Positions 4,938 through 8,626 of a stretch of 19,886 bases of DNA are shown here, one piece after another (position 1 is the stretch's first letter; the number at the start of each line of letters is the position of its first letter). The translations under genes and the position numbers were made by a program. The notes under the pieces were generated by a model. The model was given only the letters and a program-made list of their open reading frames with translations. It was not told the origin of the DNA and made no database searches. Location: NCBI GenBank assembly GCA_019057475.1, contig DXJO01000005.1, positions 1-19,886 on the forward strand, given 5' to 3'. This DNA is from Candidatus Thorarchaeota archaeon. Its GTDB lineage: Archaea > Asgardarchaeota > Thorarchaeia > Thorarchaeales > Thorarchaeaceae.

Positions 4938-5366
4938 TCAATCTCCTACACTGATAGCAGCGAGTTTTTTTTGCGAGTCTTTGCGAATGCGTTGTCCACA
5001 GTCCCTACAGAATTGCATGTTTTGCTCATCGTCTTCCCAATTGAGATATGTCATATCGAGAGCGTCTTTCACTAAGCGAATCAGGGGGTTTGTCTTGCTT
5101 CGTTTGTAGTTCAAATGGTGTTCTCGGTGTTTGTCCCATGTCATCACTTCTAGATTCTCTTTTCGATTATCAAGACGATTTCCGTTTATGTGATGGACAA
5201 TTTCTTCAGGTCTAAGCTTTCGGCTAATAATGTGCTTCTCAGCAACCCACCTATGAACAAGAATGTTCGATTCCCGGAAGCGATAATATCCCCGCTCGTC
5301 CTTGTACTTGATTGAGTCAGGTTTCGAACCATGCTTTCTCGGTTTCTTCTTGAAGAACCTACTCAT
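4938..5366 (-). CDS. HNH endonuclease (HNH_3-like) with a C-terminal Zn finger cut by a frameshift
   Basis: VHRWVAE...IVHHINGNRLDNRKENLEVM motif. CRDC is followed in the -1 frame by CYQC (stop at 4924). Confidence 0.9.
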   Translation of the reverse strand: MSRFFKKKPRKHGSKPDSIKYKDERGYYRFRESNILVHRWVAEKHIISRKLRPEEIVHHINGNRLDNRKENLEVMTWDKHREHHLNYKRSKTNPLIRLVKDALDMTYLNWEDDEQNMQFCRDCGQRIRKDSQKKLAAISVGD

Positions 5367-5560: not shown

Positions 5561-5633
5561 AGTTCCTCCTGCGAGGGTGACTCCGAAAGCTGGGGTGTTT
5601 TTGAAGGACATAACATACACATGAATGATTCAG

Positions 5634-5876
5634 ATGGGTCGCACGATCAGGACATTCAGAGAAGCTGTAGACATCGAGAGTGCAAAGTGGAAGACCTTTC
5701 GCAGACAGTTAAAGCGCGAAGACCGCGAGAGGCTCGACAAGATATTCGACTACGCAAGGATGCACGCAGACTCTGGAACAGTGATCTCCATCCCTCACAA
5801 GATTGACGTGGTGTTCATGTCCGTGTTGATCGAGATGCAGAGGAGGATTGACGAGCTTGAGTCCACCCTTCAGTAA
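5634..5876 (+). CDS. Small conserved archaeal protein resembling the PolB2-associated family (arCOG07300/PPB2-like)
   Basis: MGRTIRTFR...W..FRRQL..EDRE.LD.IF.YAR.HADSG......P....FMSVLIEMQRRI pattern, recognised from memory of this family. Start set at ATG 5634. Confidence 0.7.
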   Translation: MGRTIRTFREAVDIESAKWKTFRRQLKREDRERLDKIFDYARMHADSGTVISIPHKIDVVFMSVLIEMQRRIDELESTLQ

Positions 5877-5884
5877 CATATCGT

Positions 5885-6025
5885 TCATGAAGCTTCCTGT
5901 CGCTTTACAATCATGATAACCCATCCACCAATGACATGGTGAGCTTTGATGTACCCCTCGGATGCCCACTTCTTGATGACCAATTGTAGGGGGTGCCTTG
6001 GCAATCCTGTGGTAGCCAACAACAT
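5885..6025 (-). CDS. 46 aa winged-helix-like micro-ORF or remnant, coupled to the peptidase stop
   Basis: ATG overlaps the peptidase TGA (TGATG). MLLATTGLPRHPLQLVIKKWASEGYIKAHHVIGGWVIMIVKRQEAS* resembles a wHTH recognition helix and wing. Confidence 0.4.
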   Translation of the reverse strand: MLLATTGLPRHPLQLVIKKWASEGYIKAHHVIGGWVIMIVKRQEAS

Positions 6026-7245
6026 CAAGAATCAAGGCTATTGATGAGCCGAGCAAAATGATGGGTTGTATCCTCTGTGAGTGACAAGAAGGCCAATGCT
6101 CCGAATCTTGTGTGAAGGGGGTCAGAAGGCTCCTTGTGTCTTCCGTATTCCTCTGCTACTCGGATTATATCATTCCAATGCTGTTTGATGTTTCCAAGAG
6201 ATGCCTGAGATTCCATCCACTCTACAAGGTCTGGAGCCATGTCAGAGCCTGCGAAGACATTGGTTACTGCGTCGAGCTCAGGACTGGGCAAACGAGGTGG
6301 GTCTAGGAATCGGTTGAGCTTGTCCTTGTCCACACCCAATTTCGACACCTCTTCCAGAACACATTGAATGCGAAGTTCCCATGGCGGATGTGTGGATGAG
6401 ATATTAACAACAGGGTCCCTCATACTCAACCTGTAGAGTTCAGTCACAAAAGCAGGTCCACAGATTGCAAGTGCCACATAGTCTGCAAAGAACTCGGGTA
6501 TCCATGCAATGTTGAAAGCTCTGGATAATCCAATCACTTGTTCCTCATAGTTCTTGAAGGATTTGCCCAGAGATTTCTTAACGGGTGAGAGGCGGTTAAT
6601 GAGTAGTTGCTGCAAAGACTCTTGATTCCAATCTGCATTCAACTTCAGATATAGGTGACCTAACTCATGAGCCATTGATGGCCACTTTTCATATCTCGTT
6701 CGGTACGCGAAAGGTATTCCGAAGAACACACATGAACCAGCTTCAACCATAGAGAAGGCTTGAGTGAATACCATAATGGGCTGTACGCGAATGTTAAGGG
6801 CATTGATGTACGATTCTGCCAGTTTATTTCCGAAATCGAGGTTAGAAGAAATCCATTCAGTTCGCCTCTGCGTCTTCCATAGTTGAAGCAGATTGATAAG
6901 TCGACTATGTTGTAGAGGAACCGTTGACAACATCTGAATATTCGAAATGCTTTGTATGAATTCCAGAGTCTGTTTCGGGCTTTCTTCTGCATTCGGGACA
7001 AGCTCTTCATGCTTATTGATCCAATTATCAAGGAGTATCGAGTGTTCGTTTATCGAAGTCAGAACAGAGCTGTAGACCGCCTTGCACTCGGGAACATCTT
7101 CCTCTGAAAGTAGCTTGACAGTTTCTTGTGCATCCTCGATGCTCTTGCGAACGTCCTCGATGATTATTTCCCATATGGCTGAAATGTCATATTCCTCCTC
7201 ATCAAAGTTGCTCAGGCCTATTGAAGCGGTTCCGATGTTCTCCAA
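6025..7245 (-). CDS. Soluble zinc metallopeptidase (gluzincin, M48/M78-like motifs)
   Basis: AHELGH (HEXXH), downstream EFFADYVA (third ligand) and STHPPWELRI. Helical N-terminal region; no signal peptide or TM. Confidence 0.8.
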   Translation of the reverse strand: MENIGTASIGLSNFDEEEYDISAIWEIIIEDVRKSIEDAQETVKLLSEEDVPECKAVYSSVLTSINEHSILLDNWINKHEELVPNAEESPKQTLEFIQSISNIQMLSTVPLQHSRLINLLQLWKTQRRTEWISSNLDFGNKLAESYINALNIRVQPIMVFTQAFSMVEAGSCVFFGIPFAYRTRYEKWPSMAHELGHLYLKLNADWNQESLQQLLINRLSPVKKSLGKSFKNYEEQVIGLSRAFNIAWIPEFFADYVALAICGPAFVTELYRLSMRDPVVNISSTHPPWELRIQCVLEEVSKLGVDKDKLNRFLDPPRLPSPELDAVTNVFAGSDMAPDLVEWMESQASLGNIKQHWNDIIRVAEEYGRHKEPSDPLHTRFGALAFLSLTEDTTHHFARLINSLDS

Positions 7246-8156
7246 GCAACATCAAACCATTTCTCCAAGTTCCTTGCAGATTCTTCAGACATGGGAAGGA
7301 TTGTTGACTGTTTCTTGCCTATGTCTTTGATGGAATGGCCTATGGACCAACTTGTCGGTTTTGTGAGAATAGCTCGGTCGTGTAGAATCCCTGGTTGGGC
7401 ATAAGCGATTTGTACCTCAGGCTTCTGGGCTGTCAGCCTACGAGCGAATAGCTCAAACTCCTTGTGCTTGGTGGGATTGGGCAGTCTTGAAGTTAAGAAC
7501 ATGACTGGCAGCCTGTCAGGAGCCTTGTTCAAAACGACCAGTGTTTCCTCTCCTGGCCAAGGGTCAACCACCTTTAGGAACGCCTTCGCAGATGACACAA
7601 TCTCAGTGACCTTCATTAGGGCATCAAAAGTTTCTCCAGGCATCACAACCAGTGCTTTGGGTGATTTTGCCTGTTTCAATAGATCCTCGTTTCGAATCAA
7701 GTTCTTATCCATAAGAACACGTATTTGGGTGATTCCGTGCCTAAGTCGTGTTTCGGGTCTGGTGAACCTCCGAATCTTGGAGATCTGAAACACAAGCTTC
7801 TCACTATCTGGCGAAGTTCGGGTTCCCGTTTCAGTCGATACGCCACTCAGATAGGTCAATACCTGTGAAAGCCACTCATCGAACCTTCGGATAGCTACTC
7901 TCTCTGCGTTCTCCAGTTTGTCACGCCGGTCTTTTTCCATGAGTGTCTTTGAGAGCTTGCGTGCCCGTCTTCCTACTCGCCCTGAATCGAAGAAATCAGA
8001 GGCAGCTATCCCGGCTATCTCAGACAAGACCATCTGTGAACCTTCATGTGACGCCTGCGATAGTGCCTCTTTGGCCGTGAACCACTCATGCAATAGGGTT
8101 TCAGCCTTTATGACGAAAGCTTCCAGTTCGGCACGGATTTGGTTCGACATAGTCAT
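7218..8156 (-). CDS. Helical N-terminal domain plus C-terminal PLD-like domain of the HDR type (putative nuclease)
   Basis: SAKAFLKVVDPW, MFLTS, LHDRAIL...WSIGHSIKDIGKK and FDVAW are hallmarks of the HDR variant of the PLD fold. Likely start MTMSNQ (8156/8150) rather than 8240. Confidence 0.8.
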   Translation of the reverse strand: MTMSNQIRAELEAFVIKAETLLHEWFTAKEALSQASHEGSQMVLSEIAGIAASDFFDSGRVGRRARKLSKTLMEKDRRDKLENAERVAIRRFDEWLSQVLTYLSGVSTETGTRTSPDSEKLVFQISKIRRFTRPETRLRHGITQIRVLMDKNLIRNEDLLKQAKSPKALVVMPGETFDALMKVTEIVSSAKAFLKVVDPWPGEETLVVLNKAPDRLPVMFLTSRLPNPTKHKEFELFARRLTAQKPEVQIAYAQPGILHDRAILTKPTSWSIGHSIKDIGKKQSTILPMSEESARNLEKWFDVAWRTSEPLQ

Positions 8157-8220
8157 CAATTCAATTGAAATGGTAATAACGTTATTTGGAGGAGTCTCTT
8201 TGATTATGCCGTAACTCATA

Positions 8221-8581
8221 TCAATCATGAAGGTTGGCAAGGCAACTCCCGCAGACCACCGTCATTCGGAGGCTCGGGTTCTCGAAGGGCCAGCTCGCTG
8301 TCGCGTAGATGCCGAAACCCTCATGGCGCCAACCAGTCAAGTCTGTAAAGCTGACCGGATACGTGTTGAAGCCTATCCTGTTGTCCATGCCGTCGGGAAG
8401 GTAGAGGGGATTAGGCTCTATTGCGGGTCTTCCAATATCCGCGACCAAACCACCTTCAGTGAAGTTCACATCTTCGCCGAGAATGAAATGAAGAGTTCCA
8501 CTACAAGAATAGCCGAAATCACGACCTCCTAACATAGCCCCATTCCCGAAGGGGACTACGGCATCGACAATGTCACCATTT
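8221..8581 (-). pseudogene. C-terminal half of a split beta-rich surface-protein gene
   Basis: Begins with NGDIVDAVVPFGNGAMLGGRDFGYSCSGT, which duplicates the end of ORF 10615-11022. No credible start of its own. Confidence 0.7.
8491..8581. repeat. 91 bp imperfect direct repeat, left copy
   Basis: Ungapped 80/91 identity with 10651-10741 (offset 2160). Confidence 0.95.
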
Positions 8582-8626
8582 GTAGGGAGAAGAATCTTAT
8601 GTGTGATGTGAATCATTGAAAACCAA

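Follow-up and report, generated by a model that had tools for sequence, protein, structure and literature searches.

A 19.9-kb archaeal contig (DXJO01000005.1), the whole of which is referred to here as the window, carries three open reading frames (ORFs) that raise the question of whether overlapping genes in a defence island form one coupled system. The three follow one another in the same direction on the minus strand, at 7218-8156, 6025-7245 and 5885-6025 in the ORF list, and belong to a host genome (G000) of 3.34 Mb that is 96% complete. A preliminary description had read them as a single defence or toxin system in which a metallopeptidase controls an effector with a phospholipase D (PLD) fold, with a small winged-helix protein as the third member. 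The ORF at 7218-8156 encodes the PLD-like protein (312 aa from the ATG at 8156, with the frame open to a TTG at 8240), and that at 6025-7245 encodes a soluble M48-like zincin (406 aa, TTG start at 7245). The junctions are as described: the 3' end of the PLD-like gene and the 5' end of the zincin gene overlap by 28 nt (7218-7245), and the zincin stop codon TGA (6027-6025) shares one base, its A, with the ATG (6025-6023) that opens the third ORF, of 46 aa. The PLD-like and zincin genes are probably co-transcribed. The reading we favour, and consider reasonably probable, is that a hypervariable cassette hotspot holds two stacked but separable genes of defence type, and no dedicated three-gene system. 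What stands of the earlier proposal is the defence-type character of both genes and their position in a defence or cassette island; that they make up one system does not, as the pair is not found adjacent elsewhere and a strain variant, seen in run X3, has the zincin without the PLD gene.

The distribution of the two families was surveyed in 801 archaeal species genomes, 400 from the phylum of the window and 401 from a sample of the class Bathyarchaeia. Within the phylum, the PLD-like family occurs in 17 genomes and the zincin in 9, and both are found only in G000. The Bathyarchaeia sample has the PLD-like family in 16 genomes and the zincin in 9, with an overlap of 0. Over the whole set, 32 genomes were counted with the PLD-like family and 17 with the zincin. 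Hidden Markov model (HMM) scans of the loci gave the same picture, with a PLD-like neighbour at 0 of 17 other zincin loci and a zincin neighbour at 0 of about 20 PLD-like loci whose neighbourhood was examined. G385 holds the nearest species-level homologue of the zincin (E 8e-34), which has a type IIG-like methylase-restriction gene close by and no PLD-like neighbour. Full-length PLD-like homologues adjoin unrelated genes, some with Rx4H motifs. Homologues of the two genes were thus not adjacent in other genomes, G000 being the only one of the 801 with both. Complex prediction for the PLD-like protein and the zincin returned a score of 0.00, which gives no verdict either way.

Strain-level contigs bear directly on the separability of the genes. 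In a contig of 4266 nt from run X3, sequence corresponding to 5822-7240 (97% identical) is followed immediately by that of 8431-10508. This variant keeps the zincin and the neighbouring GmrSD-type gene and lacks the 1190 nt that hold the PLD gene. The edges of the gap are marked by a 5-nt repeat, TCCAA, at 7241-7245 on the left and 8431-8435 on the right, with the joint at 7240/8431. Read on the minus strand, TCCAA is TTGGA, so the X3 variant retains the start codon of the zincin. Control of a PLD effector by the peptidase within a coupled unit of three ORFs is therefore not supported, as one genome of 801 has both genes and the X3 variant keeps the zincin without the PLD gene. Genes that overlap in a defence island are not necessarily partners, as contigs at the strain level can directly demonstrate; here, they remove a tempting call of a new system.

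Other joints show that the region as a whole is a cassette hotspot, a mosaic of segments that some strains have and others lack. In contigs of run X3, joints link 3349/3385 to 5592/5626, leaving out the block of a 420-aa gene and HNH, and contigs of the same run also join 5863 to 10604. The latter joint would possibly leave out the 46-aa ORF, the zincin, the PLD-like gene and the GmrSD-type gene. The GmrSD-type gene (8627-10387, plus strand; Pfam GmrSD_N, PADLOC HEC-05 with E 9e-229) lies between 94-nt direct repeats at 8488-8581 and 10648-10741 that are 87% identical, and it is a separate cassette. Additionally, the ORFs at 8221-8616 and 10615-11022 resemble two halves of one split gene.

Several observations weigh against the separation of the two genes. 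The 28-nt overlap argues for co-expression, and relatives of the zincin are nearly always translationally coupled to an upstream gene, a role that the PLD-like protein could fill here. The set of other zincin loci leaves aside the contigs of the closest relatives (P0003, P0004, P0005-P0013), among them those with 45-89% identity. The last seven residues of the PLD-like protein, RTSEPLQ, lie beyond the X3 joint and fit the C-terminal pattern of the family, W-x-x-S-x-P-L. As these residues are outside the missing piece, the X3 variant probably represents a microhomology deletion of an older PLD-zincin arrangement, and less likely an empty site. Furthermore, a contig of run X8, from another study and about 92% identical, spans the PLD/zincin junction (6923-7277); thus, the PLD-zincin arrangement does exist in close relatives, and in these only.

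How the zincin is placed in other genomes helps to weigh these points. At the 17 other zincin loci, a helical ORF of 130-175 aa abuts or overlaps the zincin gene upstream in nearly all. The family was found beside long Argonautes in 8 archaeal loci, from genomes of the Asgard phylum, Bathyarchaeia and Woesearchaeota (L013 3136-8125; L014 3065-8288; L061 3730-8978; L045 1787-5590; L046 1034-3783; L057 5819-9685; L059 5735-9593; L048 1-2232). A small helical ORF (133-160 aa) is present in 7 of the 8, and at L048 the contig ends at that point. Three loci are co-directional and ordered as Cas4-like nuclease, class II prokaryotic Argonaute (pAgo_II), small protein and zincin, two of them with a gene for a helix-turn-helix (HTH) regulator upstream. 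In the other arrangement, seen at 5 loci, the pair of helical protein and zincin stands tail-to-tail with a long prokaryotic Argonaute (pAgo; Piwi domain, PADLOC PprPIWI). A further 3 loci have an adjacent gene resembling dCTP deaminase (Pfam DCD, E 1e-35 to 1e-40), next to a small ORF of 154-175 aa and a zincin of 397-458 aa (L012 6891-9265; L005 358-2981; L063 7561-9845). Our results show that in other genomes the zincin family accompanies long Argonaute operons and dCTP-deaminase-like genes as an accessory, as a rule behind a small helical partner.

The window zincin is related to these proteins. Its narrow profile matched P0021, a member of the subgroup that holds the Argonaute-linked zincins of L045 and L048, with E 9e-8, the Argonaute-operon zincins of G109 and G229 with 2e-4 and 5e-4, and the dCTP-deaminase-linked zincin of G135 with 4.6e-7. 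What the window shares with the accessory pair of PliAgo-type operons (HTH regulator, Cas4-like nuclease, pAgo) is a homologous catalytic core in the zincin, at an identity of about 17%. It differs from them in that no Argonaute was detected in the host genome and the zincin lacks a small helical partner on its upstream side; the gene upstream encodes the 312-aa PLD-like protein instead of an abutting helical ORF of 130-175 aa. No Piwi domain (PF02171) and no pAgo match were found in the 96%-complete genome, and none in the window. The description of PliAgo-type operons makes no mention of a protease pair (PMC9360449), and no mention of a helical ORF and zincin beside long Argonautes was found in the literature searched. 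An undescribed zincin family that is otherwise an Argonaute-operon accessory here extends to a solitary archaeal subfamily.

A rival reading is a lineage-specific two-gene system, in which the zincin would regulate the PLD effector through cleavage of either an inhibitor or the effector's helical N-domain. The PLD-like protein would then hold the place that Argonaute and nuclease, or dCTP deaminase, take in other zincin operons. Such coupling is possible because of the gene overlap and the habit of the zincin family of riding with immune effectors: the family always accompanies a defence protein directed at nucleic acids or nucleotides and is coupled to an upstream helical ORF, and the N-domain of the PLD-like protein is helical and stands in that upstream position. 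The junction is also kept in the X8 relative. However, the 801 genomes hold no co-occurrence besides G000, the zincin frame is open in the X3 variant in the absence of the PLD gene, and relatives of the PLD-like protein adjoin unrelated genes. The N-domain also showed no detectable relation to the small helical zincin partners (hhalign probability 0.9%). We therefore regard a two-gene system of this kind as unlikely. A related proposal is that the zincin is a portable accessory of varied immune effectors directed at nucleic acids or nucleotides, namely long Argonaute with Cas4-like nuclease, dCTP deaminase and, in this lineage, an HDR-type PLD protein, which it would switch on or off by proteolysis through the helical N-domain. 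This seems distinctly unlikely to us; if true, the pair would be a new protease-gated PLD defence system. Under the reading of two stacked genes, the zincin may instead be a proteolytic effector or regulator that acts without need of the PLD-like protein.

The zincin itself carries HELGH at residues 193-197 (nt 6655-6669), ExxxD as EFFAD at residues 251-255 (nt 6481-6495), and HPPxxxR (nt 6370-6390), with THPP at residues 285-288, all on the minus strand. No variation occurs at H193, E194, H197, E251, D255, P287 and R292 across alignments of 18 close and 32 distant relatives; H286 is shared by all 18 close relatives and by at least 90% of the 32 distant ones. The protein thus has, family-wide, the HExxH motif and the downstream Glu ligand in ExxxD that characterise gluzincins. 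It is taken to be soluble because no hydrophobic 19-mer exceeds 1.5 on the Kyte-Doolittle scale, and the earlier view of a soluble zincin with HELGH, EFFAD and THPP motifs was correct. The Pfam M48 model (PF01435) aligned residues 191-298 to model positions 69-184 below its gathering cut-off (13.9 bits vs 20.3), and was also the commonest weak match among the close relatives (7 of 18). The motif order HExxH...ExxAD...HPPxxxR is that of the M48 gluzincins HtpX, Ste24 and BepA; the window zincin differs in being soluble, in its helical N-region of 130 residues, in the lack of membrane segments and in its scores below the cut-off.

Searches with the zincin alone against Pfam, NCBIfam and PDB sequences gave nothing significant, no PADLOC model matched it, and its profile against the PDB returned coiled-coil noise only. 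Leads from a protein atlas were weak (Peptidase_U49 (Lit) and M48, score 0.79). The preliminary description had cited zincins of the ImmA/IrrE and CapP types as a precedent. What is shared with these is the broad concept of a zincin that works on a partner within a stress or defence module: the window zincin is M48-like and has no match to M78, which was seen in 3 of 18 relatives at E>=0.014, there is no HTH substrate gene, and the presumed HTH partner is a gene remnant (see below). The protein is an active-looking member of an undescribed family of M48-like gluzincins. The family is rare, with 53 cluster representatives at E<=1e-3 in an exhaustive profile search of 1.84 billion proteins; scans with alignments of the zincin, two of metagenomes and one of viruses, turned up no relative.

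The lack of an Argonaute raises the possibility that an Argonaute operon was lost and the zincin stayed behind as a stranded gene without function. The absence of a Piwi domain from the 96%-complete genome and of a small helical partner upstream would fit such a loss. Against it, the frame is open at full length, with all of the invariant catalytic residues in place. Relatives likewise have an intact frame, namely P0003 (89% identity), P0005 (45%) and G385; in the cluster at 85% identity, the representative P0004 is a piece of 298 aa and the member P0098 is intact at 397 aa. Furthermore, the zincin belongs to a distinct subfamily of at least nine clusters at E<1e-30. A functionless remnant is thus very improbable, and the zincin is better seen as one of two separable genes of defence type.

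For the PLD-like protein, sequence searches alone were of little help. Pfam, NCBIfam and PDB sequence searches with the single protein gave nothing significant, and a word-index search returned the protein itself as the sole match. A single-sequence AlphaFold2 (AF2) model was poor, with a predicted local distance difference test (pLDDT) of 53.8, and a model from an alignment of relatives, collected in genome scans and a protein collection, was used instead (pLDDT 89.8). In this model, residues 1-160 form a helical N-domain of a long hairpin and a small helical subdomain (7677-8156, minus strand), which had no specific fold match. Residues 164-312 adopt the PLD fold that had been proposed, with Nuc (1bys) as the reference (Z 16.1, root-mean-square deviation (rmsd) 2.4 A, 141 aligned residues); Foldseek aligned the model to 1byr with E 3e-6 and a template modelling (TM) score of 0.74. 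Other structural matches of the C-domain were NucT, SauUSI and Zucchini (Z 14-16), TrmBL2 (Z 13) and MITD1 (Z 11.2).

The canonical PLD signature is HxK(x)4D(x)6GSxN. In the window protein, the place of HxK is taken by an HDR motif at residues 259-261 (nt 7374-7382, minus strand), followed C-terminally by a GxSxKDxG motif at residues 273-280. D198 of a DPY motif, H259, R261, S275 and G280 are invariant in alignments of both 13 and 41 relatives. D260 is present in 13 of 13 and in at least 90% of the 41, and G273 in at least 90% of both sets. The protein thus departs from the catalytic HKD signature, reading H259-D-R261...G273-x-S275-x-K277-D278 with Arg for Lys and a variable +7 position. From the alignment conservation, the signature of this family is therefore HxR...GxSxKD, and not HxK(x)4D(x)6GSxN. 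Compared with the single-HKD nucleases Nuc, NucT and Zucchini, which are the best structural matches (Z 14-16, rmsd 2.4-2.8 A over about 140 residues), the window protein has HxR for HxK, a +7 Asp that is not conserved, and GxSxKD for GSxN, at an identity of 12-14%. As in these nucleases there is one motif per chain, and a dimer would therefore be needed to form a site.

These deviations from the signature might mean that the PLD-fold domain is non-enzymatic and binds a ligand or membrane, as MITD1 or the sensor domain of TrmB does, in which case the protein would be a sensor, scaffold or regulator. The replacement of Lys by Arg and the unconserved Asp of HxK(x)4D point this way, as do the matches of TrmBL2 and TrmB to the fold (Z 12-13). 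Additionally, MITD1 is the sole PDB sequence match of the family profile (4a5z, E 0.013), with DPY and IHDR in common, and its PLD-like domain mediates membrane association (PMC11962514). However, the top structural matches are nucleases, and the His, Arg, Ser, Lys and Asp are invariant in a fast-evolving family. The domain is also common to the defence candidate PDC-S05, and in one relative (G399) a HEPN RNase domain takes the place of the PLD domain behind the N-domain, which points to an effector role. A non-enzymatic protein is thus possible but doubtful, and we describe the PLD-like gene as a candidate single-protein effector related to PDC-S05.

The swap in G399 was found at L037 6618-7544 on the minus strand, where a single protein combines the window protein's helical N-domain with a Swt1-like HEPN domain (Pfam HEPN_Swt1, E 6e-10; PADLOC PDC-M34B). 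Effector swapping of this kind is typical of conflict proteins. Conversely, the HDR domain stands behind several different N-termini among the relatives. Members of the family occur in Heimdallarchaeia, Bathyarchaeia and DPANN archaea, with full-length relatives in genomes G341, G322, G349 and G353. In the closest homologue (G341, L035 8392-13172), the gene is directly followed by those for a 437-aa protein with RNKIAH (Rx4H) and a 993-aa P-loop protein with a GVGGIGKS motif, possibly another defence cluster. G000 also has a second HDR-type PLD protein of 330 aa (L043 1351-2343, minus strand, G000:C51), which reads SIHDRWIITKD and has a different N-terminus; a related paralogous N-domain gene lies upstream of it.

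The relation to PDC-S05 concerns the C-terminal 150 residues, which match its PADLOC models PDLC04869 (E 3e-17) and PDLC04879 (E 6e-14). The match is partial, aligning residues 174-322 in the 340-aa frame to model positions 150-292 of 306, and the N-terminal half is unmatched. Part of the PLD-like protein thus falls under a single-gene candidate for phage defence that had been named before. With one PDC-S05 representative in E. coli, T7 and T5 plated about 1000-fold less efficiently, and the tested protein is described as carrying a Virulence_RhuM domain (preprint 10.1101/2024.09.26.614923). The window protein resembles it in being a single polypeptide with an HDR-type PLD-fold domain in a defence island, and differs in its N-terminal half, which is helical here and Virulence_RhuM there. 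Like a single gene with no fixed partner, it has relatives with varied neighbours and no zincin. The window protein defines a new architecture of the HDR-type (MIT_C-like) PLD domain common to PDC-S05, with a helical N-domain that carries HEPN in a relative.

The occurrence of HDR in MITD1 was also pointed out before, and the MITD1 chain indeed reads IHDR at the aligned position, although the link itself is sub-significant. The MIT_C domain of eukaryotic MITD1 (PF16565; PDB 4a5z, 2ymb) resembles the window domain in its PLD fold, its DPY and IHDR motifs and its structure. All sequence scores are nevertheless below significance, and the window protein has no Pfam match, no MIT domain and no ESCRT-III link. 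Pfam MIT_C and PLDc_2 match few of the relatives, and weakly (MIT_C in 2 of 13 at E>=0.006). The HDR PLD-like family ranges across DPANN, Bathyarchaeia and Asgard archaea and so does not link eukaryotes to the Asgard archaea in particular. The HDR site does bear on what the PLD-like domain of MITD1 descends from.

How the PLD-like protein might work can be outlined from its fold. The helical N-domain may serve as a dimerising or sensing module, and two PLD domains could pair, as in Nuc, into one site that cleaves phosphodiesters or binds phosphate. This paired site would act on nucleic acid during infection. The PLD-like protein and the zincin are both good targets for biochemistry.

The third member of the proposed system has a simpler origin. 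Residues 20-44 of the 46-aa ORF (5885-6025, minus strand) match the C-terminus of a 171-aa protein encoded elsewhere in the genome, on contig G000:C32, at 72% identity (E 7e-8). In the DNA, the 84 nt of 5896-5979 share 81% identity with L070 1503-1586, which is the 3' end of ORF 1498-2013. The 171-aa gene is an intact paralogue, and none of the other zincin loci examined has a counterpart of the 46-aa ORF 3' of the zincin. The reading as a small winged-helix gene was rejected, since homology to the 3' end of the 171-aa gene explains the ORF. With protein and DNA matches in agreement, the mini winged-helix partner gives way to a 3' remnant, that is, debris of an older gene.

The surroundings of the three ORFs were described correctly, with the GmrSD-like gene on one side and an HNH endonuclease gene (4938-5366, minus strand; Pfam HNH_3, E 3e-7) on the other. 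An ESCRT-II match (PF05871) above the Pfam cut-off in G000 (L071, G000:C26 22957-23217) is consistent with an Asgard-like host, and DNA related to the window is present in metagenomes from marine sediment and cold seeps. Outside the proposed unit, a convergent gene of 83 aa lies at 5625-5876 on the plus strand and belongs to a multi-copy family of small proteins in G000, with three copies (5625-5876 in the window; L040 1474-1728; L041 1495-1779). One copy of the family is directly upstream of a gene resembling family-B DNA polymerases (PolB-like) and overlaps its start, and in G385 a homologue with a frame change occurs close to the zincin (L011 6343-6578). Relative to its flanks, the 83-aa gene of the window is covered at a several-fold higher sequencing depth.

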